A DNA stretch of 60,929 nucleotides, counting the filler. It is 4 parts of 4 records of this genome, joined end to end, with 100 filler letters (N's around TTAATTAATTAA, not from the genome) between each part and the next. Parts side by side here need not be neighbours in the genome. Positions count along the whole stretch, not along the records: positions 14,899 to 36,819 come from SRR31156797_1576; 3 more parts are not named here. One strand, 5' to 3'. Below the pieces are notes generated by a model. That model saw only the letters and a program-made list of their open reading frames with translations. It was not told the DNA's origin and did no database searches. Of this stretch, positions 14,799-47,027 are shown piece by piece. Every line of letters begins with the position of its first letter. The stretch's first letter is position 1. The position numbers and the translations under genes are program-made.

Positions 14799-14898
14799 NN
14801 NNNNNNNNNNNNNNNNNNNNNNNNNNNNNNNNNNNNNNNNNNTTAATTAATTAANNNNNNNNNNNNNNNNNNNNNNNNNNNNNNNNNNNNNNNNNNNN
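14799..14898. other. artificial contig linker
   Basis: 44 N + TTAATTAATTAA (stops in all six frames) + 44 N. Confidence 0.99.
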
Positions 14899-15500
14899 CT
14901 GCAAAAGGTTTAGAGTGGGATAGTGTAACCATAGCAGATGATTTTACCGATTTTGCTGATCTGATAGTAGACTTTGGATGTGAGAGTTTAGAAGAGTTTT
15001 TAAGTGAGCAAAACCATTTACCAAATCAAGAACTTATAGATGAATTCAATCTCTTTTATGTAGCTATTACAAGAGCAAAGAAGATCCTTTTAAAAGATAG
15101 TGAGAATTTTCACTATCTGATGGCAAAAGATATCCATAAACTAGTAGATAGTAGAATAAAAGATGCAAAAGCAAATCTTGAAGCAGTGCAGTCAGGTAAA
15201 AAACAAAAAGCTTCGAAGATGGAAGCAGAAGATAAACTTCTTGTAAGACAACAGAAAAACCTCGAAGAGGGTAAAGCAAAAAATACAGGGCTTAAATGGA
15301 ATCTAGAAGATAAGATACAAGCAAGAAGTATGTATAAAAAAGATAAAACTATAGGGCAGATAGCTCAAAAACTAGAGCGAACTACAGGATCAATAATAGG
15401 AGAGCTTCATAAAAGTGAAGTGATAAGTAAATCTGAACAGTTGAAATTAGCAGAGCTTTTAAAAACTGATCCCTCAAATGCAAGGAAAAATGGGCTTTAA
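14899..15500 (+). CDS. UvrD-like SF1 helicase, C-terminal part (partial) with an HTH-like tail
   Basis: Frame from 14901 reads AKGLEWDSVTIADDF...FNLFYVAITRAKK (SF1 motifs V/VI) and is in frame with ORF 15120-15500. Confidence 0.85.
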
Positions 15501-15501
15501 A

Positions 15502-16008
15502 ATGGGTACTATAAATATAAGCTATTATAGAAAATATGGATTTGATCTTATCCTTGGAACTTATGACAAAAAACTTTGTCTTCTAGGGTTTATGGGAAGT
15601 AAGCATAGAGAAAAACAAGATAAAAAAATACAACATGATCTAGATGCAAAGTTTAAAGAGTGTGAAGATGAGCTGTTAGAACAAATAAAAAAAGAGCTTG
15701 ATGAGTATTTTGAGGAAAAAAGAAAAAGTTTTACCATCCCACTTTTGATGGTTGGAACTGAGTTTCAAAAAAGTGTATGGAAAGCTTTACAAAAAATACC
15801 TTATGGAGAAACTTCCACTTATAAAAAACAAGCTAGTATGATAGATAATGAAAAAGCGATACGAGCCGTAGCCAATGCCAATGGAGCAAACCCTATCTCC
15901 ATCATAGTTCCATGTCATAGGATCATAGGAAGTGATGGAACTTTGACAGGTTTTGGTGGTGGATTGGATTTAAAACAAAAGTTACTAGATCTTGAAAAAG
16001 GAGTATAG
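15502..16008 (+). CDS. ogt: methylated-DNA--protein-cysteine methyltransferase
   Basis: GTEFQKSVW..IPYGET, RAVANANGAN and the active-site PCHR. Confidence 0.95.
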   Translation: MGTINISYYRKYGFDLILGTYDKKLCLLGFMGSKHREKQDKKIQHDLDAKFKECEDELLEQIKKELDEYFEEKRKSFTIPLLMVGTEFQKSVWKALQKIPYGETSTYKKQASMIDNEKAIRAVANANGANPISIIVPCHRIIGSDGTLTGFGGGLDLKQKLLDLEKGV

Positions 16009-17913: not shown

Positions 17914-18823
17914 AGTAATAAAAGCAGGTCTTTTTACAACCTTACAAGATAGAGGAAGGTTTGGCTTTACTCATCTAGGAGTAACAAACTCTGGAGTAAT
18001 GGATGAATATGCTGCATTAGCTGCACATAAACTTCTTAGTAATGATTTTGATACAAATATTTTAGAGATCACTTTTGTAAATGTAGAGCTAAAAGCAACG
18101 AGTGAAACCTATATCTGTAGCACAGGAGCATATTGTGAATTTTATATTAATAATGAGCTTAAAACTATATGGCAAGTATATAAAATAGAAAAAAATGATC
18201 ATATAAAAATAGGTAAAATATTTAGTGGCCAAAGAGTATATTTAGCTATAAAAGATGGCTTTGATATACCAAAAGAGTTTAGAAGTAACTCTACAACTAT
18301 AAAAGAATCTTTAGGTGGTATAAGTGGGAATGTAATAAAAACAGGAGATATACTCCCTTTTAAAAATAATACGAACGTTCCTTTAAAAAGGTGGCAGAAA
18401 AGAAACTTACCTAAATATACAGATGAACTTACTTTACGAGTAGTATTATCTTATCAAGAGAAAAATTTCTCTAAAGAGCAAAAAAAGAAGTTTTTTCATT
18501 CAAGCTATACTATAACAAAAGATTTTAATAGAATGGCATGTAAATTAAGTGGTGAAAAGATAGAGTCATCTTTAGATGGGATCATCTCCGAAGCTATTAC
18601 ATTTGGTAGTATTCAGATCCCAAAAGATGGACAACCAATCATTCTACTAAAAGAGAGACAAACCATAGGAGGATATCCAAAAATAGGAAGTGTACTTAGT
18701 ATCGATTGTTTTAAATTAGCCCAAATGAAAATAGGTGGAAAGGTACGATTTAAAGAAATAAGTTTACAAGAAGCACAAGAAAAAGTGAAACTTTTTTATA
18801 GTAGTTTTTATGAAAGTAATTAG
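17894..18823 (+). CDS. pxpC: 5-oxoprolinase subunit C
   Basis: TTLQDRGRFG...GVMD and GSIQIP.DGQPIILL.ERQTIGGYPKIG. Confidence 0.92.
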   Translation: MEHLSFEVIKAGLFTTLQDRGRFGFTHLGVTNSGVMDEYAALAAHKLLSNDFDTNILEITFVNVELKATSETYICSTGAYCEFYINNELKTIWQVYKIEKNDHIKIGKIFSGQRVYLAIKDGFDIPKEFRSNSTTIKESLGGISGNVIKTGDILPFKNNTNVPLKRWQKRNLPKYTDELTLRVVLSYQEKNFSKEQKKKFFHSSYTITKDFNRMACKLSGEKIESSLDGIISEAITFGSIQIPKDGQPIILLKERQTIGGYPKIGSVLSIDCFKLAQMKIGGKVRFKEISLQEAQEKVKLFYSSFYESN

Positions 18824-19613
18824 AACCATGGAAAAAAATATCATCTATACAATTTATCAAAAACTATTTGCAGAATATGGATCACAAGGCTGGTGGCCTT
18901 TTAAAGGTGTAGGTTATCATCCAAATGATTATAGCTATCCAAAAAACAGCGATCAAACCTTTGAAGTAGCCCTAGGCTCAATCCTTACTCAAAATACCAC
19001 ATTTATCTCAGTACAAAAAGCACTTGATAATCTAGAAAAACTAAATGCTTTGACTCCAAAAGCTATAAAAGAGCTAGATATAGATGAACTGAAACTAGCT
19101 ATAAAACCAGCAGGGTATTTTAATCAAAAAGCGAACTATATCTTACATTTTATAGAGTCTTTTGAAAAGCTAGAGGGCAAAACTCCAAGTAGAGAGGAAC
19201 TTTTAAAAGTAAAAGGGGTAGGGGAAGAAACAGCTGATTCTATTTTACTTTATGGATATAATGAAGATCAGTTTAAAGTAGATGCTTATACGAAAAGGTT
19301 ATTGTGTGAACTTGGGATTATAGGTGAGAAAACAAAATATAAAGAGATCAAGAAGCTTTTTGAAGATGCTTTAGAAAAAGAGATACTTGATAAAGAACAA
19401 AGAAGAAAAATATATCAAGAGTATCATGCTTTGATTGTGGAGCATGGGAAAAGGTATTATTCTAAGAAGCCTTATGGCATTGGGTGTTTTTTGAAAGAGT
19501 TTAGCAAATGGGAAAATGGAGCTAAATTGGCTTTAAAAGATAAAAGTTATATGGAGTTTTTAGAGCAAACAAGTGATAATATTGATGATATTTATAAATA
19601 TGACAATAAGTAA
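18810..19613 (+). CDS. HhH-GPD / endonuclease III-related DNA glycosylase with an antitoxin-derived C-terminal tail
   Basis: GWWP, GSILTQNT, IKPAGYFNQKA, HhH LLKVKGVGEETADSILLY, VDAYTKR and EYHALIVEHGK. No Fe-S Cys motif. Confidence 0.88.
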   Translation: MKVIRTMEKNIIYTIYQKLFAEYGSQGWWPFKGVGYHPNDYSYPKNSDQTFEVALGSILTQNTTFISVQKALDNLEKLNALTPKAIKELDIDELKLAIKPAGYFNQKANYILHFIESFEKLEGKTPSREELLKVKGVGEETADSILLYGYNEDQFKVDAYTKRLLCELGIIGEKTKYKEIKKLFEDALEKEILDKEQRRKIYQEYHALIVEHGKRYYSKKPYGIGCFLKEFSKWENGAKLALKDKSYMEFLEQTSDNIDDIYKYDNK

Positions 19614-19625
19614 GGTAAGTGATAA

Positions 19626-19988
19626 ATGGGAAAAGATTTGATTGATAAAAAAGAGTTTTATGATTCTATAAAATCTATTCTTCAAACTGCAAGAGATAAA
19701 GCATATAAATCAGTGAACTTTATTATGGTAGAAGCTTATTGGAATATAAGAGCTCAAATAGTTGAAGATAGAGCAAAATACGGTACATACCTTATTAAAG
19801 AGCTTTCAAAACAATTAACCCAAGAGTTCGGGAAAGGTTTTAGTCAACAAAATCTTAGAAATATGAAACAGTTTTATAAGAGTTTTCCAATTTGCTCTAC
19901 ACTGTGTAGCGAATTGAGCTGGAGTATAAGGGCACTTGAAAGGGATGTTTTAGAAGTTAAGATGAGGAGGGAAAGTTGTAATGAATAA
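19626..19988 (+). pseudogene. truncated DUF1016/YhcG-family gene (N-terminal region only)
   Basis: VN..MVEAYWNI, YG..LIKELS..LT.EFGKGFS..NLRNMKQFY..F and LSWS match the DUF1016 N-terminus. The ORF ends at 120 aa without the PD-(D/E)XK domain. Confidence 0.75.
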
Positions 19989-22900
19989 TATAATTAATAC
20001 AGAATCGTCTGCAAGTAGTGCAGGATATAAATATCAGGATATTGTTGCTTTAAATAGTGTTGTTAACTTGTTAACTGATAATACTTTAAAAAAAGTTATT
20101 ATTGATAAAGATAATACTCCTCATATTGAAGATGTTGTTTTAGAATATATAGATAAGGTTGAGTATTTACAAGTCAAGCATTCAAATAGTGAAATCCAAG
20201 AAACATTTAAAAATAGTGATTTATTTTGTAAAGAAAAATCTCTCTTTTCTAAAACTTTTATCGGGTGGCAACATGAAAAAACTAAATTTGATACTATTAA
20301 AATAGTTCTTTTAGTAAATAAAACAGTTTCAACTCAAAAATCTAAAGGTTTTTTTTCTACTAAAAAGATTGTTGAAAGTATTAATTACACTAGAGATAAA
20401 AAAAGTGCTATAGATAAATTAATCTTAGAAAAGATGCAGTCTGATTTAAAAGATAATGGAGTTAAATTTACAATTACAGATATAAAACTATTTTTAAAAG
20501 ATTTATATTTTAAATTTAATAATCCACCTATGGAAGAATTACTAAAAAATATAGAAGAAAAATTAAAAGGTATAATTCAAACACCTAACATAATAAATCA
20601 TTTAAATACATTATATAAAGAAGTTTCTTTAGATGCTACAGCTAATAGTGTATCAAAGAGAACATATACTAAAGAAAAAGTTGAAAGAATTTTAGATTTA
20701 AATAAAAAGCAAAAATTTACACATTTTTATGATATACCAAAAAATTATATTGATATAGAAAATAATTTTTCAAATTTATATCGATCCTATAAAGAGCTTT
20801 CAAAAGGGTATATATTTTTCAAAGGTAAGGCAGGTTCTGGAAAAACATCATTTATTACTAAATTTTTATCTGAAATTGAAAAAGAAGATGATATTGCTGT
20901 TTTAAGATATTATTTATTTCATTTTGATGATAAGTCTAATGAAGATTCAAGTGAGAGGGTAATTAAAAACTATTTTTACTATGATTTATCTATACAACTA
21001 AGAAACTATTTAAGTAGTGACTTTGTGGGTGAAATATATTTAAATGAAGAATCAAATAATTATGAACTGTTTTGGAATAATCTAGAAGTTTTAGCTAGAA
21101 AATTTAAAAAAGTAATAATTGTAGTTGATGGTATTGATCATGCAATAAGAGCCAAAAGAGATATAAGTACATTTTTTGATGGCTTAAAATTACCAAATCA
21201 AATTATCAATAATGTTATATGTATTTTATCCGGTCAATCAAACTGGAAGGGTTACCCTAGTTGGCTAAAAAAAGAAGATAATAGTGAATATTTTAAGTCT
21301 GTTGAAATAGAACCTTTTCCTATGGAATTATGTAAACAATATATAGAGTCTTTAGATTATTGGTCTGATGGTAATCTTGTTGATTTTTTATCTTATCGAT
21401 CTTATGAAATAACAAAAGGTTACCCTTTAAATTTAAAAATATTTATTGATACTTTGAAAAATATTAATTCAATAGAGGAGATTGAAAAATATCTACAAAG
21501 TAATAACTATTTTGATAATTTTGAAAACTTGGAAGTGTATTATGATTTATTGTTTGAAGATGTTAAGTTAAAATACTTTGAAAATAATGGAAGTGAATTA
21601 CTTAAATTTCAGGCTTTACTTTGTTTATTAAAAGAGCCAATTAATGCTGAAACTATAGAAGCAATATTTAGTGAAATAGATATTTACAAATATAGTGAAA
21701 TAATAAGTAAAATAAAACCAATTTTATTACAAAAGAATGATGGGAATTATGAATTATTTCATAACGATATTAGGGTTTATCTTCATAGTAAAATTGATAT
21801 AAGTATTAGAAAAGATATGATAAGAAGGATAGCTAATTATTATATGGATAATATTGAGAGTAAATTTTCTCAAAAGTATTTAATTAAGTATTTATATGAT
21901 TTAAAAGATTATGAAAGTATAAAAAAGCTTTTAACTTTTGATAGGCTTGATTTAAAGTATAAGTTACTAAGAACACATCAAGAGATTATTAATGAACTTA
22001 ACATTGGAATAAAAGTAGCAAAAGAGCAAAAAGATCCATATTACTTATTGGAAATGGAATTAGTAAGTCATCAACATAATATGGTCATAAATAATTTAGA
22101 GGGTAGTGGAGAATTTGATTTTGACTTAGAGGCGAAAAAAGTGCCAAATTTATATTCTTTTATTGCCCCGTCAAAAGAAGATATCTCATATAGTGCAATA
22201 AATAAAAGAAAAACATTTTTTAATATTTTTTCAAAACTAGAATTAGAATCTTTAGAAACTAAAAAATACTTTTTTTATAAATTTTCATTTAATATTATTG
22301 AATATTTAAAAGATATAGATGATATTGGAGTTCATCAAGAAGATTCAAAAGAGTTTTTTTATCAATATTTTTATACCTATCTTCAAATAGATAAAGAATC
22401 CTCTATAAATGAATTCAAAGAAATTCAAGATTTATATGAAGTAAAAGATAATTTTTCATATATAAGAGATTGTTTTTTCTATGCTATACATGATCTATTT
22501 GAACTTGACTTAGAACAAATTAATTATTTTAGAAGTATTAAAATCAGTGTTTCTATAAAATCAGTAGTTAGTGCCTGTTATTATTTTTATAAAAATAGTG
22601 AATTTAAAAAATTAGAAAATATATTAAAAGCATTAATCGAAAATGGGTTTCTTTCTAATAATACTATATACATTGCTTATATAAGTGGATTAAAAGATTT
22701 ATTACCTTCCGATTATGAGATAAAATCTGTTTCTGATGAATTTGCAAACAATACAATGAACTATAGAAATAAAGTATTTAAATGGGCATATATAAGTACA
22801 AATAAATATGAATATAAAAATATATCGAATCTCTTTAGTAAGTTTAAATTTAGTCGGTTTGATAGTGAAGTTTATAAAGCAAATATATTTTTAGGATATT

Positions 22901-25449
22901 TATCTGCTAAAAATTTTTTATCAGTATCTGATATTGATGAGTTGTTCTTTTTTATTGATAATCAAAAACACTTTAACTTTTCTCAAATTACTGAATCAGT
23001 ACAAAAGTTTTTAGAGATAGTAAAAAATAATGATATAAAAATACATTTACTTAATACTTTTGCTGCTATTGAAGAAAGAATAAAAGATTATGATGAATTT
23101 ATATTTGCTTTTTATAAATGGTGTGAAGAATATAATTTTAATACTGATAAGTTTACTTTGAGAAAACTAGAAAATGATTTGAAAAATAGTATACATGGAT
23201 TAGAAACTTATTATAGGCAAGAAAGAGTTCATACTCTTATAAACATAAAGAAACATCTTCATGAAGATGTTTCTGAATATCAATATTTTTTACGAAAATA
23301 TTCTTTAGGATATGGATTTAGAAAAGATTATCAATCTGAATATTTTATGGCATATTTTACTAATCTACTTAAAAAAGATTATAATAGATATATTGATATT
23401 ATTTATGAGTTTTTGTTTATTGAACAATTTAAACAAAACGAACAGACAGAAAAAACTACTACATTAGAACAAGTATTAGAAGAAATATTATTAATAGTAG
23501 CTATAAATTCAAAAGCTGATTTATTCAATATATTAGAATACTTTTTTAAAGAAAATAATGGACTAGAGATACCAACTGAACTTTTTTTAAGGATTATCCC
23601 AAATACTATACAAAATGAAGAAGATGCTATAACGGCATTTTCACTTTTTAAAATGGGTACGACTTTTTCACAATATAATAATTTTAGAATTAGTGATGAA
23701 AAGATTATTGAAAATTTATCTAATGAACTTAAAAAATTTGATATTAGCTGTATAAATATTTTTAAAGATAATATTGTAAATGGGGATAACTATAATACTA
23801 AGGAATACAATAAAATTATAGAACGGAAATTTATAGAATTAATGAATAAATTGGTTAAAGATGGACGATTGACTTATAGATATTGGAATGAAGAAACAGC
23901 ATTATTATTTTATAATATCCAATTTCATGCTGATTTGTATTTTGAAAAAGTCTGTGAATCAAATCAAAGTTTTGGAATAGAAGCAATTCTAGAAGTGTTA
24001 CCTTTTATGAATGGTATTGATTTAGATAAAATGAACAATTTAGTATTAACGTACCTAGATAATTTATATAGTAATGTTAATGAAGATATAGAAACAATTC
24101 AAAAAAAGTATGCAACTTTTAATATAGAGATTTTATTAAACTTTTTAACAAAATATTTGTACTGTATAAATCCTAATGCTGTTGTTTCTGCAATACAATC
24201 ATATATACAAATAGGTGAATTTTTTATTGATGAAGTAGTCGAGTTTATTTTTAATAGTATCGATTTTAATAAGTTGTTTCACTGTAAATTATGGTTAGAT
24301 ATTTTAATTGAGTTACCATTAAATAAATATTCTAATTTAGATGATTTAAAAAGAAAAATTGTTGAATTTAGTAAAAAATCTAATTATGTATACTTAGATT
24401 ATAGTATAAAAAAACTATTTAATATTTTAAATATGGAGTATAAAAAAGATTACTCTTATTTTACTTTAGATTTACCATCAAGTATTATTGTAGAAAAAGA
24501 TAGAGAAGTTGGAAATTATAAAGACTTTTTTTTAAGTACAGAATATAAAACAGTTAAAAGTTTTATTCTTAAGGTCAATAAAATAACAAGTTTAAGTGAA
24601 AAATTTATATTTGAAAAAATTAACTTTTTTAAGGAAACTAAAAAGGTTGAAGTTTCATATTATAGAAATTGTTCAAAGGATATAATGTTATTGGGTTTTG
24701 ATAGTTCATTTTATAAATCGGAACTTGTGCAGTATTTATATGAAGAAAATTATATAAAGAAAATACAAAAAGATTATTTGATGCAAATAATTCAAGGATA
24801 TGACTTAAATGTAGTTAGACAGGAAAACTATAAGCCTTTTTATATTAAGAACTTCCCTAATGTAGATATTCAAGAAGAACTCGATACTTATATTGAAAGA
24901 CTTAAAATTGAGGATATAATAACAGATGTTTCCAAAGTTTTTTCTGGAAACTGGGAAGAAAAATTAGAAAGAGATTATATTATTAGGTGTGATATTAATA
25001 CATTTATTTTAAAAGATATATTATTTAAATCATTAAAAGGGAATCTTGATATATTAGAAAAATTTTATTTTAATTTTGGAGTTGATAGCTATTATTTAAA
25101 AGATAAGAATCCTTACCATGTATCTATTTCTACACTTAATCCAATTTCTTTAACAATAAAGTCATCAACAAAATGTTTTAGTAATACAAGTTTTCAAAAT
25201 TCGCAATTAATTTATATCCCTAATAATTCAGTAGAAACAAATTTAATAAGATGGAATTATGGGAATTCTTACTCTAGTGATTACCATCAATTGCATTATC
25301 AAGGTTTTGGACAAATTAATGAATTAGCTTCTGAAGTTAAAATTCAAAAAGATGAAGTAATGATCAAAATTTGTGAATTGGAAATATTTCACAAAGAGAA
25401 TAATGAAAAAATCAGCAGAGTATTTTTACTAAAGGAGAAGCAAGTATGA
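19981..25449 (+). CDS. Avs-like antiviral STAND protein: Cap4/DUF4297-type PD-(D/E)XK nuclease + NACHT-like NTPase + long helical sensor region
   Basis: N-terminal AGYKYQD...IEDVV...YLQVKH, Walker A GKAGSGKT, Walker B IIVVDGIDH, GYPL, FHND and about 1200 aa of C-terminal sequence. Confidence 0.8.
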   Translation: MNNIINTESSASSAGYKYQDIVALNSVVNLLTDNTLKKVIIDKDNTPHIEDVVLEYIDKVEYLQVKHSNSEIQETFKNSDLFCKEKSLFSKTFIGWQHEKTKFDTIKIVLLVNKTVSTQKSKGFFSTKKIVESINYTRDKKSAIDKLILEKMQSDLKDNGVKFTITDIKLFLKDLYFKFNNPPMEELLKNIEEKLKGIIQTPNIINHLNTLYKEVSLDATANSVSKRTYTKEKVERILDLNKKQKFTHFYDIPKNYIDIENNFSNLYRSYKELSKGYIFFKGKAGSGKTSFITKFLSEIEKEDDIAVLRYYLFHFDDKSNEDSSERVIKNYFYYDLSIQLRNYLSSDFVGEIYLNEESNNYELFWNNLEVLARKFKKVIIVVDGIDHAIRAKRDISTFFDGLKLPNQIINNVICILSGQSNWKGYPSWLKKEDNSEYFKSVEIEPFPMELCKQYIESLDYWSDGNLVDFLSYRSYEITKGYPLNLKIFIDTLKNINSIEEIEKYLQSNNYFDNFENLEVYYDLLFEDVKLKYFENNGSELLKFQALLCLLKEPINAETIEAIFSEIDIYKYSEIISKIKPILLQKNDGNYELFHNDIRVYLHSKIDISIRKDMIRRIANYYMDNIESKFSQKYLIKYLYDLKDYESIKKLLTFDRLDLKYKLLRTHQEIINELNIGIKVAKEQKDPYYLLEMELVSHQHNMVINNLEGSGEFDFDLEAKKVPNLYSFIAPSKEDISYSAINKRKTFFNIFSKLELESLETKKYFFYKFSFNIIEYLKDIDDIGVHQEDSKEFFYQYFYTYLQIDKESSINEFKEIQDLYEVKDNFSYIRDCFFYAIHDLFELDLEQINYFRSIKISVSIKSVVSACYYFYKNSEFKKLENILKALIENGFLSNNTIYIAYISGLKDLLPSDYEIKSVSDEFANNTMNYRNKVFKWAYISTNKYEYKNISNLFSKFKFSRFDSEVYKANIFLGYLSAKNFLSVSDIDELFFFIDNQKHFNFSQITESVQKFLEIVKNNDIKIHLLNTFAAIEERIKDYDEFIFAFYKWCEEYNFNTDKFTLRKLENDLKNSIHGLETYYRQERVHTLINIKKHLHEDVSEYQYFLRKYSLGYGFRKDYQSEYFMAYFTNLLKKDYNRYIDIIYEFLFIEQFKQNEQTEKTTTLEQVLEEILLIVAINSKADLFNILEYFFKENNGLEIPTELFLRIIPNTIQNEEDAITAFSLFKMGTTFSQYNNFRISDEKIIENLSNELKKFDISCINIFKDNIVNGDNYNTKEYNKIIERKFIELMNKLVKDGRLTYRYWNEETALLFYNIQFHADLYFEKVCESNQSFGIEAILEVLPFMNGIDLDKMNNLVLTYLDNLYSNVNEDIETIQKKYATFNIEILLNFLTKYLYCINPNAVVSAIQSYIQIGEFFIDEVVEFIFNSIDFNKLFHCKLWLDILIELPLNKYSNLDDLKRKIVEFSKKSNYVYLDYSIKKLFNILNMEYKKDYSYFTLDLPSSIIVEKDREVGNYKDFFLSTEYKTVKSFILKVNKITSLSEKFIFEKINFFKETKKVEVSYYRNCSKDIMLLGFDSSFYKSELVQYLYEENYIKKIQKDYLMQIIQGYDLNVVRQENYKPFYIKNFPNVDIQEELDTYIERLKIEDIITDVSKVFSGNWEEKLERDYIIRCDINTFILKDILFKSLKGNLDILEKFYFNFGVDSYYLKDKNPYHVSISTLNPISLTIKSSTKCFSNTSFQNSQLIYIPNNSVETNLIRWNYGNSYSSDYHQLHYQGFGQINELASEVKIQKDEVMIKICELEIFHKENNEKISRVFLLKEKQV

Positions 25450-26513
25450 CCCCATTTATCCCAAAAAACTTACCCCTACCACAAAATATAGAAACAACAA
25501 AAGTACTAAAAAAGTCAATTAGTGCAAATAAAGCATTAGCTAGACTTAACGGTGTGGCAAAAATTATACCAAATAGCAATATTCTGATAAACTCATTGGT
25601 GCTTCAAGAGGCAAAAGACAGTTCAGAGATAGAGAATATTATTACCACTCACGATGAGCTATATCGTGCGGGTATAGATATATCAAGTGTAACACGTGAG
25701 GCTAAAGAAGTCCAAAACTATAAGCAGGCTTTGCTTTTGGGGTATGAGCTTGTAAAAGAGCATAAACTTTTATTAAAAAAGCATATTATAGCTATACAGC
25801 AAGAACTAGAGCAAAATAGTGCGGGGGTTAGAAAACAAAGCGGTACGAATCTAAAAAATGCAGTTACGGGGGAAGTGATATATACACCGCCCCAAGATTA
25901 TGAAACTATACAAGATCTTTTATCAAATCTTGAAAACTATATAAATGAATCCAATGATATAGATCCGCTTGTAAATATGGCGATTATCCATTATCAGTTC
26001 GAGTCTATTCATCCATTTTATGACGGTAACGGTAGGACGGGGAGGATCATAAATATCTTGTATCTTATTTTAAAAGATGTTTTGGATATACCTATTTTGT
26101 ATCTTAGCCGTTATATTATCCAAAATAAAAGTGATTATTATAGGTTATTACAAGAAGTAAGAACAGAAGATAAAATGGAAGAGTGGATCTTATATATGCT
26201 TGATGGAGTTGAAAAAACTTCTATAGAAACAGTTGAACTTATTGAAAATATAAAAGAATTAATGGATAAAATAACGGAAGAGTTAAAAGAAAAATTGCCA
26301 AAGATTTATAGTAAAGATTTAGTAGAAATACTTTTTATGCATCCATATACCAAGATAGATTTTTTGGTAGATATATTAGGATTGCATAGGCAGACAGCTT
26401 CAACATATTTAAAAGAGTTGGAAAAATTAGGAATATTAAAAACCATTAAGTTAGGGAGAAGTAAATATTTTATTAATTTGGAGCTTTTTAATATGTTAAA
26501 AAAAGGGATATAA
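25446..26513 (+). CDS. Fic family AMPylase (class II, SoFic-like) with C-terminal HTH
   Basis: Intact HPFYDGNGRTGR catalytic motif, SSEIENI inhibitory motif and HTH LGLHRQTASTYLKELEKLGIL. Confidence 0.93.
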   Translation: MTPFIPKNLPLPQNIETTKVLKKSISANKALARLNGVAKIIPNSNILINSLVLQEAKDSSEIENIITTHDELYRAGIDISSVTREAKEVQNYKQALLLGYELVKEHKLLLKKHIIAIQQELEQNSAGVRKQSGTNLKNAVTGEVIYTPPQDYETIQDLLSNLENYINESNDIDPLVNMAIIHYQFESIHPFYDGNGRTGRIINILYLILKDVLDIPILYLSRYIIQNKSDYYRLLQEVRTEDKMEEWILYMLDGVEKTSIETVELIENIKELMDKITEELKEKLPKIYSKDLVEILFMHPYTKIDFLVDILGLHRQTASTYLKELEKLGILKTIKLGRSKYFINLELFNMLKKGI

Positions 26514-26610
26514 ATCGACATATTAAAATTATATGTCGAAAAAACAAAATAATTTCGACATATTTTACTGATATGTTAAAAAAATCAAAAAATTTTTACA
26601 TATATAAAGA
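26491..26610. repeat. 3 x 40-bp tandem array of palindromic half-sites
   Basis: ATATGTYRAA recurs at 26491, 26531 and 26571. Its complement TYKACATAT recurs at 26515, 26555 and 26595. Confidence 0.85.
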
Positions 26611-26616
26611 GAAACA

Positions 26617-28590
26617 TTGACCCAAACCCAAAAATACTACGCCTACGACATAGAAACTTTTCCAAATGTTTTCTCCTGTACTATCCAAAATATAGAAATA
26701 GGTACAATCAAAGTATTTGAAATAAGCACTAGAAAAAATGACAGCGTAAAGTTTTATAAAACACTTCTTTGGCTAAGCCAAGCTCAAAAAATACTTGTAG
26801 GGTACAATAACTTAGGCTTTGATTATCCCGTGATACGATATTTTTCTTCTATTTTTGATAAAAACCTAGATGGAGGAACAATAGCTCAAAAGCTTTATGA
26901 ATACGCCAATAGTATTATAAAAGATAGAGCAAATATTGTCTATGAAAAAAAAAGTATCTCTATCTTACAATTAGACCTTATGAAAGTACACCATTTTGAT
27001 AATAAGGCAAAAAGAGTAAGTCTCAAAGTACTTGAATTTAACATGCGTTCAAAAAATATTGAAGATCTTCCTTTTAAGCCTGGGACAAAACTAGATGAAA
27101 ACGACATAGATACTTTGATAAAGTACAATATCCATGATGTAAAAGAGACGGTGAAGTTTTTTCATCACTCCATTGATGCTATACGATTTCGAGAAGAACT
27201 GAGTGAAAAGTATAAAGAAAATATGATGAACTACAGCGATATGAAGATCGGCAAGCAGTTTTTTATCCGTAATCTTGAAGAGAAGTTAGGGAGTGATATC
27301 TGTTTTAAAGATGGTAAGCCTAGGCAGACTATAAGAAACTATATAGATTTTTCAAAGATCATCTTTGAGTGCGTAGAGTTTCAAACGAAGCCATTTATAT
27401 TACTCAAAGAGTATCTTTCAAAGCAGTTTACCAATGATACGAAAAAAGTATTTGTCAATATCTCTAAAGAGGAGTTAGGAGGACTATCTGAGCATATGGA
27501 TATCACAAAAGGTGGCATTGCCCACTCATTACATCTGATCTATAAAGATTTTATCTTTTACTTTGGGACAGGTGGACTTCATGGGAGTGTGGAGAGTTGT
27601 TATTATGAAGAAGATAGGGAGTATTGTATCTATGATGTGGATGTGGCAAGTTATTATCCTAGTATTGTAGTTCATAATAAGTTATATCCTGAACATTTAG
27701 GAGTAGAGTTTGCCGATATTTATAATGAGATTAGAGCGCTACGTTTTAGTTACTCTAAAGGGACACCTGAAAATAAGATGTTAAAACTAGCACTTAACGC
27801 CGCAGGGTTTGGAGATACCAATAATCAGTATAGCCCATTTTATGATTATCAGATGACTATCACTATCACTTTAAACGGTCAGTTGATGTTATGTATGCTT
27901 TCCGAGATGCTTTTTCTAGGAATTGAATCTATGTCACTTATCCAAGCAAATACCGATGGTCTAACAGTTCGATTTAAAAAAGAGAATAAGGAGCAGTTTT
28001 TTGGTATCTTAAAGCAGTGGGAACAAAAGACAGGGATGGAGCTAGAAAAGACAGAATACACCCATATGTGGATAAGAGATGTCAATAACTACATCGCAAA
28101 AAGTAGTGATGGAAAAGTAAAACAAATAGGAGCTTATAAAGCTGATCTTGAATGGCACCAAAATCACTCAGCACTTGTAGTACCAAAAGCTGTAACTGCG
28201 TATTTGATAGAGGGTATAGAAGTAGAAGAGTTTATTAAAAGTCACCAAGATAAATTTAACTTTTTTATCAACTACAAAGCCCCAAGAGGCTCACGTCTAG
28301 TATTAGAAGAGATACAAGGGAATAGAAAAGTATATAAAGAGCTTCAAAATACTATTCGATACTATATATCAAAAGAAGGAGCTCCTTTAAAAAAACTAAT
28401 GTCACCGATTAAAGACAATACCGAGGAGAGAGTGATCGGTATCAATGTGGGATATAATATCAAAGTATGCAATGATGCAGATCAGTTTGATTTTGATGAT
28501 TTGCATTATGAGTGGTATATTAGTGAAGCGAAAAAATTGATTGAACCTCTATTTGGGAGTAAGGCTAGGAGTCTTTTTGATTTTGTTTAG
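26617..28590 (+). CDS. phage-type family B DNA polymerase with 3'-5' exonuclease domain
   Basis: ExoI YDIET, ExoII GYNNLGFDYP, ExoIII YNIHDV. Motif A DVDVASYYP, motif B KLALNAAGFG, motif C QANTDG, then RDVNNYIA. Confidence 0.9.
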   Translation: MTQTQKYYAYDIETFPNVFSCTIQNIEIGTIKVFEISTRKNDSVKFYKTLLWLSQAQKILVGYNNLGFDYPVIRYFSSIFDKNLDGGTIAQKLYEYANSIIKDRANIVYEKKSISILQLDLMKVHHFDNKAKRVSLKVLEFNMRSKNIEDLPFKPGTKLDENDIDTLIKYNIHDVKETVKFFHHSIDAIRFREELSEKYKENMMNYSDMKIGKQFFIRNLEEKLGSDICFKDGKPRQTIRNYIDFSKIIFECVEFQTKPFILLKEYLSKQFTNDTKKVFVNISKEELGGLSEHMDITKGGIAHSLHLIYKDFIFYFGTGGLHGSVESCYYEEDREYCIYDVDVASYYPSIVVHNKLYPEHLGVEFADIYNEIRALRFSYSKGTPENKMLKLALNAAGFGDTNNQYSPFYDYQMTITITLNGQLMLCMLSEMLFLGIESMSLIQANTDGLTVRFKKENKEQFFGILKQWEQKTGMELEKTEYTHMWIRDVNNYIAKSSDGKVKQIGAYKADLEWHQNHSALVVPKAVTAYLIEGIEVEEFIKSHQDKFNFFINYKAPRGSRLVLEEIQGNRKVYKELQNTIRYYISKEGAPLKKLMSPIKDNTEERVIGINVGYNIKVCNDADQFDFDDLHYEWYISEAKKLIEPLFGSKARSLFDFV

Positions 28591-29386
28591 TGAAATGCTC
28601 AAGTAAGTATTTTGTACTATATTTATAAAACTTTTTCTCTATAAGTTTTAAGTCTCTTATATCACCTTTGAACCTATTAAAATCATCTAAAAAAGTTTCA
28701 AAGTTCGTATTTTTTAATGCTTTATTATCTGAAAATAAAAATTGATGAAAATTATCAAAGGTTTCTTTTTTATTGATAATCCTATAGGTTTTATTTGGAT
28801 ATTTTTCCAAGATATATTTTTTGATTTTTGGATATAAAATATCTTGGGTAAATTTCATCCTAAACTTACTAAACTCTTCTAATTCTTTCTCTTTTCCATA
28901 AGCTTTTGTTGTAGTTTCTAAAGTTGAAGTTTTTTTGTCTTCATTTTGTATAAATTTATACTTTGTAGTATGTGGATATAGATTGGATTCAAATTTATAC
29001 AATCTATCAAGTACTTTATCAAAAATATAACCGTGGAGTGAAAATATCTCGCCGTAAATCAGTTTTTTCTTCTCAATTAATCTACACCAATCTCCAAAGA
29101 GATAGAGTTTATACTTTTTGTCAAGGTGTGTTTGTCCATGTTGAAGTTGGTATTTATAGTTTGCTTTATCCCATTGTTTTAAGTTTTTAAATTTTGATAA
29201 ATCTTCATTTGTACCATACTTTACAATTCTAATTTTATTTTTACCAAAACCAACTTTCTTTTGATGTTTCAAAAATATTGTATATTTTTCATAGTCACTT
29301 AAAAGTGCCCAGAGTTCATCTTTTTGTTTTTGATTGAGATTTTTATAAAATGATATTTTCTCTTTTAGTATGCTTTCTATTGACAT
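28565..29386 (-). CDS. hypothetical protein (Lys-rich, 273 aa)
   Basis: Long ORF in AT-rich DNA with an AAGG RBS upstream. Co-oriented 29 bp downstream of the antitoxin gene. Confidence 0.75.
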   Translation of the reverse strand: MSIESILKEKISFYKNLNQKQKDELWALLSDYEKYTIFLKHQKKVGFGKNKIRIVKYGTNEDLSKFKNLKQWDKANYKYQLQHGQTHLDKKYKLYLFGDWCRLIEKKKLIYGEIFSLHGYIFDKVLDRLYKFESNLYPHTTKYKFIQNEDKKTSTLETTTKAYGKEKELEEFSKFRMKFTQDILYPKIKKYILEKYPNKTYRIINKKETFDNFHQFLFSDNKALKNTNFETFLDDFNRFKGDIRDLKLIEKKFYKYSTKYLLEHFTKQNQKDS

Positions 29387-29415
29387 TATTTTCCTTAGAC
29401 TTTTGTTTATCTCTA

Positions 29416-29697
29416 TTAGCCTATTTTCTGTATTAGTCTACCTGTTGCATACTGATGAAGTATACTTGATACCAATGTTTGATAAGGCAAGCCTAATTCA
29501 ACAGCATTGGTTTTTAAAGCTTCTAGGTCATGAGCTGATAATCGTATATTTATTCTTTTGTCTTTTTTTAAAGTGTTTTTTGCGATTTCTTGATGAGATT
29601 TTATCTCTTCATCCAAGTTTTTTACCGACTCCCATTCACCACTTTCTATCGATTCTAATAATTCTTGCTCTTCATTATCTAAAGTATAGTTTATCAT
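29416..29697 (-). CDS. CopG/RHH-type antitoxin, partner of the BrnT-like toxin
   Basis: KDKRINIRLS..DL..LK..A...GLPYQTL..SILH. ATGA overlap with the toxin gene. Confidence 0.85.
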   Translation of the reverse strand: MINYTLDNEEQELLESIESGEWESVKNLDEEIKSHQEIAKNTLKKDKRINIRLSAHDLEALKTNAVELGLPYQTLVSSILHQYATGRLIQKIG

Positions 29698-29972
29698 TTT
29701 CGACCTCCTAAATATTTTTTTGTTAATTGTCTATTTGGAATAATGGTTTTTAAAAATCTTTCATTTTTATTTTCAACAAATGGTATTGCATAAATATAGT
29801 TCTTGATATTGACCACTAATATTTTCTGATTAGCGTATTTTTCACTGTTAGGATGTTGGATAATATCTAATAAGTCACCTTGTTCAATATGCATAACAAC
29901 TTGCTCAAAACTAATATCTCTAGTTTGTTTTAATAAAAGGTTTTTTTCTTTATTCCAATTGTATGTAATCAT
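29694..29972 (-). CDS. BrnT-like type II toxin (toxin-first pair)
   Basis: WNKEKN..LK..R.ISFE and FLKTIIP.R..TKKY pattern, 92 aa. Confidence 0.82.
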   Translation of the reverse strand: MITYNWNKEKNLLLKQTRDISFEQVVMHIEQGDLLDIIQHPNSEKYANQKILVVNIKNYIYAIPFVENKNERFLKTIIPNRQLTKKYLGGRK

Positions 29973-29978
29973 GTAATG

Positions 29979-30007
29979 ATTTTAGCTTAATGTGTGCCTT
30001 TTGTCAA
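29979..30007 (-). promoter_or_regulatory. sigma70 promoter of the BrnT-like operon (probably leaderless)
   Basis: Minus strand TTGACA (30007-30002), 17 nt, then TAAAAT (29984-29979). The ATG starts at 29972. Confidence 0.65.
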
Positions 30008-30072
30008 TAAATAAATTGTATGAGTTCACAATATATTACATCTATTTAATTCATATTATAATTAGTATACAA

Positions 30073-30101
30073 TTGACAGAGAAAAAATATTGTTATATAA
30101 T
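30073..30101 (+). promoter_or_regulatory. consensus sigma70 promoter of the antitoxin-mazF-STAND operon
   Basis: TTGACA (30073-30078), 17 nt, then TATAAT (30096-30101). Confidence 0.75.
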
Positions 30102-30125
30102 AAGATAAAAAATAAGGGAAATAAT

Positions 30126-30380
30126 ATGGTACAATCATTACAAAAATCTGAAAAAGTAACTATCACTATTCCTCATGAACTAAAAGAGAAACTAAAAGCC
30201 TTAAAAGATGAGTTTCAAACTACAACTTCTTCTATTTATAAAGAAGCCTTAGAAAACTATATAGATCAAAAAGAGATGGAAAAATGGCAAAAAGGTGCAA
30301 AACTAGCTTCAGAAGATAAAGAGTATATCTCTTTTGTAAATGAGCTTAGTAATGATAAAGGCGATATCTATGAATATTAA
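30126..30380 (+). CDS. ribbon-helix-helix antitoxin
   Basis: KVTITIPHELKEKL...SSIYKEALENYI RHH pattern. AAGGG RBS before ATG 30126. Overlaps the toxin start. Confidence 0.82.
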   Translation: MVQSLQKSEKVTITIPHELKEKLKALKDEFQTTTSSIYKEALENYIDQKEMEKWQKGAKLASEDKEYISFVNELSNDKGDIYEY

Positions 30381-30729
30381 TCAAGGGGAGATATGGGAGG
30401 TTGAGTTTTTTCCACAAGTTGGAAGTGAGATAGGTAAAAAACGACCAGCTCTTGTGGTAAGTCATGATATGATTGGAAAGCTTCCTTTAAAAACTATAGT
30501 ACCAATAACTGGATGGAATAAGAACTATAGTAATTATCCTTGGATGATTAAGATTACAAATGATGAACTTAATAGCCTTGATAAAGTATCTACTATAGAT
30601 TGTTTTCAAGTGAGAAATTTTTCTTATAAACGATTTGTGAAAAAAGTTGGAGTGGTTGATGTTGGTACTCTTGTGGATGTACATGAAACTATTTTAAAGA
30701 CTATGAATCCTAAGTATAAGATTTTATGA
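30370..30729 (+). CDS. PemK/MazF family toxin
   Basis: QGEIWEVEF.PQVGSEIGKKRPALVVS, IVPIT and DCFQVR. Confidence 0.92.
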   Translation: MNINQGEIWEVEFFPQVGSEIGKKRPALVVSHDMIGKLPLKTIVPITGWNKNYSNYPWMIKITNDELNSLDKVSTIDCFQVRNFSYKRFVKKVGVVDVGTLVDVHETILKTMNPKYKIL

Positions 30730-33071
30730 TAGATTATGATTTCTCAACATTAAATGATAAAGAGTTTGAAAATCTATCAATAGAACTTATTTCAAAAGAT
30801 AGGAATAAAAGATTTGAGAGGTTTAAAGCTGGGAAAGATGGTGGAATTGACGGGCGATATTACCATGAAAATGATACTCAAGAGATAGTTCAGTGCAAGC
30901 ATTATCTAAAAACAGGATTTGATGGACTTCTAAGATCATTAAAGAAAAAAAATGATAAAGGAATCAATGAAATAGATAAAGTTAATAGCTTAGATCCATC
31001 TAAATATATTTTTATCACATCATTACCTTTATCAGCTGAAAATAAAAAAACTATAAAAAAACTTTTTGATCCATATATTAACAATGACAACGATATTTAT
31101 GGACAAGAAGATTTAAATCAAATACTTGCAGAGTATACAGATATTGAAAAACGATACTATAAACTTTGGTTAAGTAGTACAGTTGTATTAGATAGAATCT
31201 TTAATAATGCTATTGAAAGTAGAAGTGAGTTTCTACTTGAAGATATAAAAGAAAATGCAAAATATTATGTAATAACTGAAAATCACAATAAAGCAATAGA
31301 AAAACTTGAGAGTTCTCATATTATTATTATTGCAGGTGAACCAGGAATTGGTAAAACTACGCTTGCAGAACATATAGCACTTTGGTATGTAGAAAAAGAT
31401 TTTAAATTTTATAATATTGAAAATTCAATAAATGAAGCTGAGAATGTTTATAAAAGAGATGAAAAACAGATATTTTATTTTGATGATTTTTTAGGTGCAA
31501 ACTATTTAAATGCAATAGAGGATAAAAAAGATTCTCATATTGTCAAATTTATGGAGAGAATTAAAAAAGATAAAACAAAAAGATTTATTTTAACTAGCAG
31601 AACAAATATCTTTAATCAGGGATTAGCTTTAAGTGATACTTTTAAAAGTAAGAATATAGAAAGTGAAGAGTTTTTAATACAAATAGAATCTTTGAAAGAT
31701 ATAGATAAGGCAATGATACTTTATAATCATATTTGGCATAGTAGTTTAGATGAAAAGTTTATAGATGAGATTTATTTTGATCAACGTTATTATAAAATAA
31801 TTTATCATAAAAATTTTAATCCACGTCTAATAGCTTTTATTACGGATAATCAAAAGCTACAAAAAGAAAATGTAAAGGAAATTGATTATTGGGGTTATAT
31901 AGTTGAAAAATTAGATAACCCACAAGATATTTGGAAAAATACTTTTGATAAACAATGTGATGAATTTACTCGTATTATAGTTTCTCTTGTTGTTTTTAAT
32001 GGAAATAGAATATCAGAAAAAGAACTTCAAAATGCTTATATGAAATATATAAAATTAGTGGTTGTTCATTATAGTTCTCATATGTCAAAAGACTTTGATA
32101 GTATAGAAGAAGTTGTAAAGTATTTTTTAAATAGATATAAAAGGCGTATAGGTTTAAAAACGTCAAATCGATATCCTTTTGATAAAAAAAAAGATATTAT
32201 TGAATATACTTTATTTAATCCTTCAATTGCCGATTTTGTAATTAATAAGTATATAAATAATTCCCAGACAGTATTCAAAAGTTTTATATCCTTAAGAACA
32301 GTTAGTTCTCTAGAAAATTTAGAAAGTTTATTTAAAAATAAAAAACTTAGTAGAGATATTTATAAAAGTATTATGCAGTATCTTTATAATGACATGGATA
32401 TTTCAATTACAAAAGGAGTAGATTATAATATACAACTTACTTATATGATTATAGTTAATAGTCCTTTATTAAAATTTGATACTAAAAAAATTTATTTGTT
32501 CTATCAAGATTGTATTGATAGTCCTAGAGTGTTTTCATATTTAGATAAGTTCATTACAACAATATGTAGATTGAAGAAAAAATCATTTAATATTAAAAGT
32601 TATGATTTTATTCATCAAATAATGGATAATGTTTTACATTTTGCTAATGAATTTAATTCTATCAATAAACTAATAGAATTAGTAGATTATTTTAAAATTA
32701 ACGATAAATATATTAATAGAGATATTAGTGAATTTATTGAATCCACATTAATTAGTGAATTATATTTTGAGCTAGATGATTTAACGAGTGATTCTTTTGA
32801 TATGGAAATAGATTATAATGGGGAAGTATATTCTATAACAAATCAGTTAGAAGAATATGCAAAACGATCTTATGATGAGTTAATAGAAAAAATTAGTTTA
32901 ATAGATGGAATCGATGTGAATCAAAGCTATGTTTTGGATAATTTAGAGATATATCATCATGAGGATAGAATTATTACTGAATATTATGAAAGTAGTATGA
33001 ACGAAGAAAATAATATTAATAATACATTTAAATATAACCAAAATAATATTGCTGATTTATTTGAGAGATAA
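30726..33071 (+). CDS. Mrr-like restriction endonuclease + STAND NTPase (nSTAND3-like), putative anti-phage protein
   Basis: EFENL...FERFKAGKDGGIDGR...VQCKHY nuclease, Walker A GEPGIGKTT, Walker B FYFDDFLG, ILTSR, ILYNH and FNPRLI. Confidence 0.82.
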   Translation: MIDYDFSTLNDKEFENLSIELISKDRNKRFERFKAGKDGGIDGRYYHENDTQEIVQCKHYLKTGFDGLLRSLKKKNDKGINEIDKVNSLDPSKYIFITSLPLSAENKKTIKKLFDPYINNDNDIYGQEDLNQILAEYTDIEKRYYKLWLSSTVVLDRIFNNAIESRSEFLLEDIKENAKYYVITENHNKAIEKLESSHIIIIAGEPGIGKTTLAEHIALWYVEKDFKFYNIENSINEAENVYKRDEKQIFYFDDFLGANYLNAIEDKKDSHIVKFMERIKKDKTKRFILTSRTNIFNQGLALSDTFKSKNIESEEFLIQIESLKDIDKAMILYNHIWHSSLDEKFIDEIYFDQRYYKIIYHKNFNPRLIAFITDNQKLQKENVKEIDYWGYIVEKLDNPQDIWKNTFDKQCDEFTRIIVSLVVFNGNRISEKELQNAYMKYIKLVVVHYSSHMSKDFDSIEEVVKYFLNRYKRRIGLKTSNRYPFDKKKDIIEYTLFNPSIADFVINKYINNSQTVFKSFISLRTVSSLENLESLFKNKKLSRDIYKSIMQYLYNDMDISITKGVDYNIQLTYMIIVNSPLLKFDTKKIYLFYQDCIDSPRVFSYLDKFITTICRLKKKSFNIKSYDFIHQIMDNVLHFANEFNSINKLIELVDYFKINDKYINRDISEFIESTLISELYFELDDLTSDSFDMEIDYNGEVYSITNQLEEYAKRSYDELIEKISLIDGIDVNQSYVLDNLEIYHHEDRIITEYYESSMNEENNINNTFKYNQNNIADLFER

Positions 33072-36819: not shown

Positions 36820-36919
36820 NNNNNNNNNNNNNNNNNNNNNNNNNNNNNNNNNNNNNNNNNNNNTTAATTAATTAANNNNNNNNNNNNNNNNNNNNNNNNN
36901 NNNNNNNNNNNNNNNNNNN
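36820..36919. other. artificial contig linker
   Basis: 44 N + TTAATTAATTAA + 44 N. Confidence 0.99.
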
Positions 36920-46927: not shown

Positions 46928-47027
46928 NNNNNNNNNNNNNNNNNNNNNNNNNNNNNNNNNNNNNNNNNNNNTTAATTAATTAANNNNNNNNNNNNNNNNN
47001 NNNNNNNNNNNNNNNNNNNNNNNNNNN
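46928..47027. other. artificial contig linker
   Basis: 44 N + TTAATTAATTAA + 44 N. Confidence 0.99.

Follow-up and report, generated by a model that had tools for sequence, protein, structure and literature searches.

Family B DNA polymerases are rare in bacteria and are mostly orthologues of Pol II. Pol II of Escherichia coli (group G1) is a non-essential enzyme with a proofreading exonuclease and a β-clamp motif, and the survey that describes it also reports minor bacterial groups that lack an N-terminal domain and mostly keep an intact DnaQ-like proofreader (Timinskas et al. 2026, PMC12926913). Other family B polymerases of bacterial chromosomes, the piPolB of pipolins and the PolB of casposons, are found near defence genes (PMC11551731), and the archaeal B5 group has been proposed as an earlier case of cells taking up a PolB of viral origin (PMC7544198). 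On the viral side, NTDG in motif C marks a subgroup called "PolIIphages" among the RNA-primed family B polymerases of viruses (Kazlauskas and Venclovas 2011, PMC3201878). The present work deals with a gene of this subgroup, here called polB, found in a window of 60,929 nucleotides (the whole stretch of DNA that was analyzed) that consists of several contigs joined via N spacers. The gene lies on an Arcobacteraceae-like contig of 21.9 kb (positions 14899-36819) and we conclude, with a probability of about 0.9, that it belongs to a clade of anciently domesticated phage polymerases, whose hosts are a group of mostly marine bacteria. The enzyme family is already known; its chromosomal Arcobacteraceae clade appears to be the new part.

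An earlier note on this DNA had proposed a stand-alone phage-type family B polymerase with three exonuclease motifs and polymerase motifs A to C, and all of them were located (Table 1). The profile PHROG 1252 ("DNA polymerase") matches polB over its full length (E 2e-169), scans of the protein against Pfam, NCBIfam and PADLOC gave zero matches, and a sequence search of the PDB found no match, even at E 1. Since the standard profiles (Pfam, NCBIfam) miss them, the proteins of the clade are annotated "hypothetical protein". The AlphaFold model (predicted local distance difference test, pLDDT, 88.1; predicted template modelling score, pTM, 0.81) predicts a DnaQ-like 3′-5′ exonuclease followed by palm, fingers and thumb. 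In this model the exonuclease domain begins the protein directly, with ExoI at residue 10 and no preceding N-terminal domain, and the top Foldseek matches are all B-family polymerases, archaeal and eukaryotic (best E 3.5e-14, TM ~0.4-0.5). Close relatives also use a TTG start codon, preceded by a similar purine-rich stretch. Residues D69, Y170, D174, D342, K390, N394 and D447 are present in 49/49 clade proteins, D11 in 46/49 and E13 in 47/49, the remainder being gaps at truncated N-termini. Because all proofreading and polymerase residues are kept, the protein should be a primer-dependent polymerase with a 3′-5′ exonuclease. The NTDG and RDVNNY motifs, which had been put forward as phage-like, are indeed present but are merely the norm for the family, NTDG being found in all 332 scored proteins, including the 49 of the clade. 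By sequence, polB is a member of the PolIIphages subgroup; by context it is not. It shares with phage members such as that of Sashavirus (YP_009787836) the NTDG motif, an intact exonuclease, a length of ~650 aa and 42-45% identity over 97% of the length. However, the phage genes are located in replication modules, amid genes encoding primase, helicase, exonuclease and SSB, and their products nearly always end at the thumb, whereas the clade members are lone chromosomal genes whose products carry an additional xxLF(DF) tail.

A protein search revealed 48 full-length proteins 56-94% identical to polB, with source names pointing to Campylobacterota, Arcobacter and Poseidonibacter, and one partial protein at 58%, after which identity falls to 48% or less. 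In a library clustered at 50% identity, a single representative scored 1208 bits and the next one 734 bits. The nearest genome loci (78-81% identical) are carried by chromosomes of Arcobacteraceae metagenome-assembled genomes. A search with the clade alignment matched 25 of 184 genomes of the family, of which 24 carry a clade member and one (G144) carries only two distant copies; the number of carriers is a lower bound, since many genomes are incomplete. In all 24 carriers the polB frame is open or cut only by a contig end, and no broken copy was found. Across a phylum-wide sample, only 2 of 401 genomes matched and both belong to the Arcobacteraceae. The two copies of G144, located on phage-like contigs (L050:9092-11086; L051:1772-3772), encode distant polymerases of the NTDG group, 30-32% identical to the polB product of the contig. 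Two short contigs labelled Draconibacterium and Erysipelotrichia (L004 and P0051) carry clade members nested among the Arcobacteraceae copies, L004 with the same MFS neighbour, and are probably misbinned.

The clade forms one branch with a support of 100 (SH-like), nested among viral proteins, in two unrooted trees, one built with FastTree (197 rows, after exclusion of 7 of 71 viral open reading frames (ORFs) shorter than 550 aa) and one with IQ-TREE (45 chosen rows). Its closest relatives are three proteins from outside the Arcobacteraceae (P0050, P0052 and P0156; support 99), with viral sequences around. Since diversity is far greater outside the clade than within it, the direction of transfer was probably from phage to cell. 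Cultured phages, Sashavirus among them, encode relatives that share 40-45% identity with polB among the best 40 of 957 records. Four scans of IMG/VR found no clade member, the best viral identity being 44% among the 71 + 80 loci read, and the plasmid collection gave eight records, the best at 43.6%, none in the clade. Searches of IMG/VR for the sister lineage yielded phage polymerases that were either of the NGVYG type or more distant, and no others (80 loci read), and a DNA pattern for the motif B variant NAAGFG gave 32 matches there, none of which (0/32) is a polymerase. The nearest homologues of polB are thus chromosomal (56-94% identity), the viral ones reaching at most ~45%, whereas the earlier note would have been refuted by nearest homologues lying only in intact phages or prophages together with relaxed selection or no expression.

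The genomic context also separates the clade from phages. Neighbouring ORFs were compared with the DNA around 76 viral polymerases: phage replication-module neighbours were found at 0 of 29 cellular loci, compared to seven and three at the two control loci of G144, and the only matches to viral surroundings at cellular loci were a response regulator and a cold-shock protein. Scans of the 21 main ORFs of the polB contig against Pfam and PHROG confirmed what the earlier note had read from the letters, namely that it carries zero integrase, primase, capsid or terminase genes; the scanned ORFs include no other phage structural or packaging gene and no mobility gene either.

Furthermore, the gene evolves under strong constraint. 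Among 20 genomes with both genes complete (four of the 24 carriers being excluded), the ratio of nonsynonymous to synonymous substitution rates (dN/dS) of polB ranges from 0.034 to 0.095 in the 32 closest pairs, compared to 0.022-0.204 for gyrB. The dN matrices of the two genes are correlated (Spearman 0.85 in a Mantel test, with 0 of 5000 permutations as high) and the GC content of polB at third codon positions tracks that of the host. For the polB of the contig, the proportion of nonsynonymous differences to the closest genomes is ~0.13 with saturated synonymous sites, and dN/dS reaches 0.085 in the comparison with G087. In a gyrB tree that covers 51 genomes (23 carriers and 28 hand-picked non-carriers, after four of 55 loci were dropped as incomplete), carriers are found in deep and crown branches, which fits an early gain with repeated loss. 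Taken together, trees, context and selection show that the gene was captured and retained. The domesticated viral polymerase proposed in the earlier note is therefore upheld, by a single chromosomal clade free of phage neighbours, under purifying selection and of mostly vertical descent.

Comparison of loci reveals where polB sits in the chromosome. In one related locus (L224), the gene order is uvrD, then HhH-GPD directly followed by polB, then MFS, MOSC and GSDH. The polB contig keeps this order, interrupted on both sides of polB by insertions of defence-type genes. The upstream slot differs from genome to genome: three relatives of the contig (L001-L003) hold there a RecQ-UvrD fusion, a DRT8-like reverse transcriptase and PDC-S73, respectively, each a different gene, and in L004 and L224 the MFS gene follows polB without the downstream block of the contig. 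Because the backbone order of L224 is kept while the flanking genes vary, polB is a stable backbone gene beside an insertion hotspot. The Mrr-nSTAND3 gene (PDC-S73) is located downstream of polB in the contig and upstream of fic in L003 (66% identity), and therefore one cargo occupies either side.

The clade proteins also have a C-terminal tail, overlooked in the earlier note, which follows the last thumb helix and is unstructured in the AlphaFold model (pLDDT <50 at residues 646-657). Its Leu-Phe pair is invariant, followed by Asp (48/49) and an aromatic residue, with QESLFDF as clade consensus. One fixed pattern detected this xxLF(DF) tail in 49/49 clade proteins compared to 4/363 proteins outside (0/71 next-nearest proteins, a set from which the partial P0051 was excluded, 0/64 and 0/80 from IMG/VR and 4/148 distant representatives), in sets that overlap in ancestry and are not independent. 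The published β-clamp consensus is QL(S/D)LF and QxxL(x)F, and the Helicobacter pylori clamp was crystallized with the ligase peptide FIRSLF (PMC4976356, in the part available). In the DnaE of the hosts, the internal position expected for the motif is occupied by xxSLF in five of the five carrier genomes (VGSLF, TGSLF or TNSLF), four of them without a nearby Gln, and TGSLF stands in the clamp-motif columns for DnaE1 of Poseidonibacter parvus (supplement of PMC12926913). The Gln-less tail of the polB of the contig therefore fits local usage. On the strength of this motif, the xxLF tail most likely docks on the host β sliding clamp.

These data lead to the following scenario. Early in the history of the Arcobacteraceae, a tailed phage of the NTDG group was, on a single occasion, the source of a replicative polymerase gene that was captured without the phage replication module and then kept as a single chromosomal gene with mainly vertical inheritance, frequent loss and occasional moves between relatives. 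The flexible xxLF tail would replace the phage partners by docking on the β clamp of the host, so that the enzyme could swap onto clamp-loaded primer ends as an accessory, non-essential and fairly accurate polymerase. By analogy with E. coli Pol II, its task could be gap filling after excision repair or the restart of stalled forks. Carriers keep DnaE (5/5 tested), Pol I (24/24, with intact exonuclease residues in the six genomes read, four of them carriers) and a Y-family gene (23/24), and the role of polB is therefore considered accessory. For the same reason, polB is ruled out as a substitute for Pol I or its proofreading, for the Y-family enzyme and for DnaE. We judge it fairly probable that polB is a proofreading, clamp-recruited accessory repair polymerase analogous to Pol II. 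The fuller proposal, in which a replicase captured near the root of the family without its replisome was rewired through a β-clamp hook into an independent equivalent of Pol II without LexA control, is more tentative and falls just short of an even chance.

The resemblance to Pol II would be one of analogy: both are family B enzymes with a proofreading exonuclease domain, and where Pol II has a β-clamp motif the clade has a candidate one, recognized by sequence. However, the clade is not orthologous to Pol II, since its proteins have no match to Pfam DNA_pol_B (PF00136), carry NTDG in motif C and, according to the model, lack an N-terminal domain before the exonuclease, an architecture that fits the description of the minor bacterial B-family groups; in addition, no LexA was found in five hosts. 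Unlike PolB2/G2 of the mutasome, which has an inactivated exonuclease and conserved partners, the clade keeps its exonuclease intact and no partner gene common to all polB loci was found. The archaeal B5 enzymes are T4/Magro-related, occur in archaeal hosts and are essential in Halobacterium, whereas the polB clade is bacterial and accessory. Pfam DNA_pol_B itself matched in only 3 of the 184 family genomes, none of them a carrier, and one of these three matches looks spurious. Two non-carriers (G022 and G084; L350 and L351) have canonical DTDS-type PolBs of ~850 aa on small contigs, that of L351 looking T4-like.

Several observations weigh against the scenario of an early capture followed by a clamp-recruited role in repair. 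The gene is patchily distributed, the gyrB tree requiring nine changes of which at least six are forced by strong branches, and the copy of G101 (L049) comes from another genus-level lineage. The link with repair genes is confined to one sub-lineage, the other copies adjoining tesA/ABC, msrA, EamA, TRAP or helicase genes. The tail of the polB of the contig lacks the consensus Gln, which is present in 35/49 clade proteins. Clamp-like tails also exist in some true phage members (QMKLF in L050, QLTLF in L051 and QLKLF in P0242); the tail alone is therefore no proof of domestication, and an unsampled donor could already have had it. Finally, no lexA gene exceeded the cut-off in any of the five carriers searched, and no shared upstream motif was seen across the clade (27 loci), so that an SOS-type induction like that of Pol II is unsupported. 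A promoter scan stayed at chance level (20 found compared to 16.6 expected). In G101, polB, the tesA/ABC block and the SF2 helicase are all of the type of the other lineage while gyrB groups elsewhere, a clear case of block transfer within the family.

The earlier note had suggested use in repair or defence. Repair is plausible and inferred from analogy, but defence is weakly supported, since polB is a backbone gene and the defence genes on either side of it are inserted and variable. According to the defence explanation, the domesticated polymerase would act against phages, by making DNA products or by competing for phage primer ends, and would be kept in a defence hotspot. It draws on the patchy distribution and on the upstream slot, which holds a different defence-type gene in each genome of the sub-lineage of the contig (STAND NTPase, RecQ-UvrD fusion, DRT8-like reverse transcriptase, PDC-S73, LmuB-like protein or AAA ATPase pair). 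However, PADLOC does not match the polymerase, polB belongs to a syntenic backbone into which defence genes are inserted on either side (L224, L004), the 16 loci L034-L049 have mostly housekeeping neighbours, and polB evolves as slowly as gyrB and tracks it. We therefore regard this explanation as unlikely.

Also unlikely is that the enzyme is functional but that its tail binds a partner other than the clamp, or that its job is not repair, for example recombination of incoming DNA together with a helicase. The tail runs on as LFDF(F/L), which fits a PIP-box-like pattern (QxxLxxFF). A superfamily 2 (SF2) helicase gene adjoins polB in seven loci of one lineage and is present in 11/24 carriers compared to 15/160 non-carriers, and Pif1-like and UvrD-like helicases are encoded near other copies. 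However, these counts are not phylogenetically independent and xxSLF is the very form used by DnaE of the hosts. The SF2 helicase is ruled out as an obligatory partner, being missing in 13/24 carriers, including the three closest to the contig.

Another explanation concerns motif B, whose form KLALNAAGFG, with one extra residue and Phe in place of Tyr, was correctly described by the earlier note, which took it as a possible change of fidelity or substrate use. A low-fidelity or lesion-bypass role due to this motif would be conceivable, since in RB69-type enzymes the equivalent Tyr forms part of the lining of the pocket for the nascent base pair and since NAAGFG, which departs from NxxYG, occurs in 18/49 clade proteins. 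The others carry NSAGYG (6), NSAYG (16), NSTYG (8) or NSAFG (1). However, the three sister proteins (P0050, P0052 and P0156) have the same variant, as does P0018, which branches with the NSAGYG group; NAAGFG is therefore ancestral for the clade and its sister lineage, and the canonical form was regained inside the clade. Among distant representatives, Phe occurs in 28/148 and the insertion in 4/148, and Phe is also found in replicative viral copies (e.g., L075). Clade members with NSAGYG or canonical NSxYG have equally low dN/dS, the proofreading residues are intact and the hosts already have a Y-family gene. The observation thus stands but not its reading as an adaptation: judged from the sequences, NAAGFG is a variant that the family tolerates and does not signal a new function in the host, although it may have a subtle effect on fidelity. 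No literature on the Phe variant of motif B (Y567F in RB69-type enzymes) was found. Overall, a role set by motif B is improbable.

The weakest explanation, a decaying prophage remnant or the replicase of a self-synthesizing mobile element like a pipolin or casposon, could appeal to the phage ancestry, to the differing chromosomal positions between lineages and to the inter-lineage transfer of G101, but is very improbable and largely refuted, since the contig has no integrase or mobility gene, no tRNA gene was found in 22 regions (21 loci and the polB contig), among the largest repeats listed for the contig none is att-like or terminal, no clade member was found in the phage, IMG/VR and plasmid collections, none of the 24 copies was seen to be broken, and purifying selection is strong. 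The clade resembles pipolins and casposons in that a bacterial chromosome carries a family B polymerase close to defence genes, but it differs by the lack of an integrase, a tRNA site and flanking repeats, by its membership in the RNA-primed NTDG group and by its status as a backbone gene rather than an island; in addition, the Foldseek matches of the modelled structure are primer-dependent PolBs.

We found no literature account of a chromosomal Arcobacteraceae clade. The main text of PMC12926913, as far as available, contains 0 mentions of Arcobacter or Campylobacter and describes no domesticated clade, its supplementary B-family table, where a member may be listed, lying outside this comparison; the available parts of PMC7544198 and PMC11348598 do not describe the clade either. 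To the bacterial family B polymerases this clade adds a lineage of its own, derived from a virus and as strongly conserved as gyrB, which an estimated one in eight Arcobacteraceae species carries. For the NTDG polymerase group, for which the PDB sequence search found no solved structure, it offers a source that is cellular and can be cultured; one cultured orthologue is that of Arcobacter roscoffensis (WP_254575884). If the fuller proposal is true, the clade would be a natural experiment in which a viral replicase was turned into a cellular repair polymerase, and if the clamp tail works as predicted, it would illustrate a simple route from viral replicase to host enzyme. Furthermore, its natural NAAGFG, NSAGYG and NSxYG orthologues allow direct comparison of the influence of motif B on fidelity.

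Table 1. Features of polB and of its surroundings (positions in the window, unless another locus is named)
Feature	Position	Strand	Description
polB	26617..28590	+	Family B DNA polymerase, NTDG ("PolIIphages", PHROG 1252) group; 657 aa; TTG start
Exonuclease motifs I-III	26644..27141	+	D11, E13, D69, Y170, D174; intact, kept in the clade
ExoI	26644-26661	+	YDIETF
ExoII	26800-26823	+	GYNNLGFD
ExoIII	27124-27141	+	YNIHDV
Motif A	27634-27663	+	DVDVASYYPS (D342, S345-Y347)
Motif B	27784-27813	+	KLALNAAGFG; one-residue insertion and Tyr-to-Phe
Motif C	27949-27960	+	NTDG; diagnostic of the PolIIphages subgroup
RDVNNY	28075-28092	+	
C-terminal tail	28561..28587	+	KARSLFDFV; invariant Leu-Phe; candidate β-clamp-binding motif; low model confidence
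UvrD-like helicase	14901..15500	+	C-terminal part, cut at contig start; syntenic in L224
ogt-like gene	15478..16008	+	O6-alkylguanine methyltransferase; syntenic in L001-L003
HhH-GPD gene	18810..19613	+	Glycosylase family; backbone neighbour, abuts polB directly in L224
DUF1016 fragment	19626-19988		Truncated N-terminal fragment, 120 aa
STAND/NACHT-type NTPase	19981..25449	+	1822 aa; variable cargo in the HhH-GPD-to-fic slot
HhH-GPD-to-fic-polB slot contents	19626-25449; L001:3871-8733; L002:7210-8826; L003:6437-8794		Contig and three relatives
fic	25446..26513	+	SoFic-like; inserted neighbour only in the sub-lineage of the polB contig, not a polymerase partner
Palindromic units	26491..26608	.	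Three 40-nt units, 11-bp arms, 11-bp spacer; perfect unit 26531-26563
Downstream variable block	28565..33071	.	273-aa orphan, BrnT/BrnA-like pair, MazE/MazF-like pair, Mrr-nSTAND3 (PDC-S73)
Orphan	28565-29386	-	273 aa; convergent with polB, 26-nt overlap at its stop; unmatched in Pfam, PHROG and PADLOC
Mrr-nSTAND3 (PDC-S73)	30726-33071		Downstream of polB

The contigs of the window are separated by N runs (14799-14898, 36820-36919 and 46928-47027). The polB contig is AT-rich (~30% GC, 21-36% per kb), unlike the adjoining contigs (50-60% GC), and because of this strong difference in GC content the flanking contigs come from other organisms. Besides polB, it carries a UvrD-like fragment, ogt, GNAT, LamB/YcsF and carboxyltransferase genes, an HhH-GPD gene, a DUF1016 fragment, the genes of a STAND NTPase of 1822 aa and of a SoFic-like Fic, an orphan, two toxin-antitoxin pairs, Mrr-nSTAND3, and MFS, MOSC, LysE and GSDH genes. 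The repair and defence or toxin-antitoxin neighbours announced by the earlier note are thus all there: ogt, HhH-GPD and the UvrD-like C-terminal fragment on the one hand, fic, BrnT/BrnA-like genes, MazF and two STAND NTPases on the other. Across the clade the neighbours depend on the lineage: ogt and HhH-GPD in the group of the contig, tesA-like/ABC, msrA, peptidase and helicase genes in others, and EamA in a third. The 1822-aa protein combines a NACHT/NPHP3_N-like NTPase with weak N-terminal endonuclease matches and a long unannotated C-terminal region of 22% GC; from its sequence it looks like an Avs-type defence protein, although no PADLOC model fits well. A similar DUF1016 fragment lies upstream of polB in L222, and such fragments are possibly scars of earlier insertions. 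In L223, an LmuB-like gene is located upstream of fic (L223:12-1898).

The palindromic units lie between fic and polB, the first one overlapping the last codons of fic. More generally, SoFic-like fic genes of Arcobacteraceae (that of the contig, 26491-26608, and L233-L262) are followed by ~2-5 palindromic units that recur every 40-41 nt, the first of which often overlaps the stop codon of fic, and the arm letters covary between loci (ATATGTCGAAA/TTTCGACATAT, ATATACCGAAA/TTTCGGTATAT and CTATGGGTAAA/TTTACCCATAG). They were found downstream of fic in 22/30 loci, compared to 2/30 upstream control stretches, and only 3 of these 22 are then followed by polB. Since the palindromes follow fic, mostly without polB behind, they are not part of the polymerase system; a function as polB operator is ruled out, as they travel with fic and polB genes that lack fic have none in front. 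A dimer of SoFic reportedly binds the DNA upstream of its own gene (bioRxiv 10.64898/2026.07.09.737422, in the part available), and the downstream palindromes could be sites for the winged helix-turn-helix domain of Fic or recombination sites.

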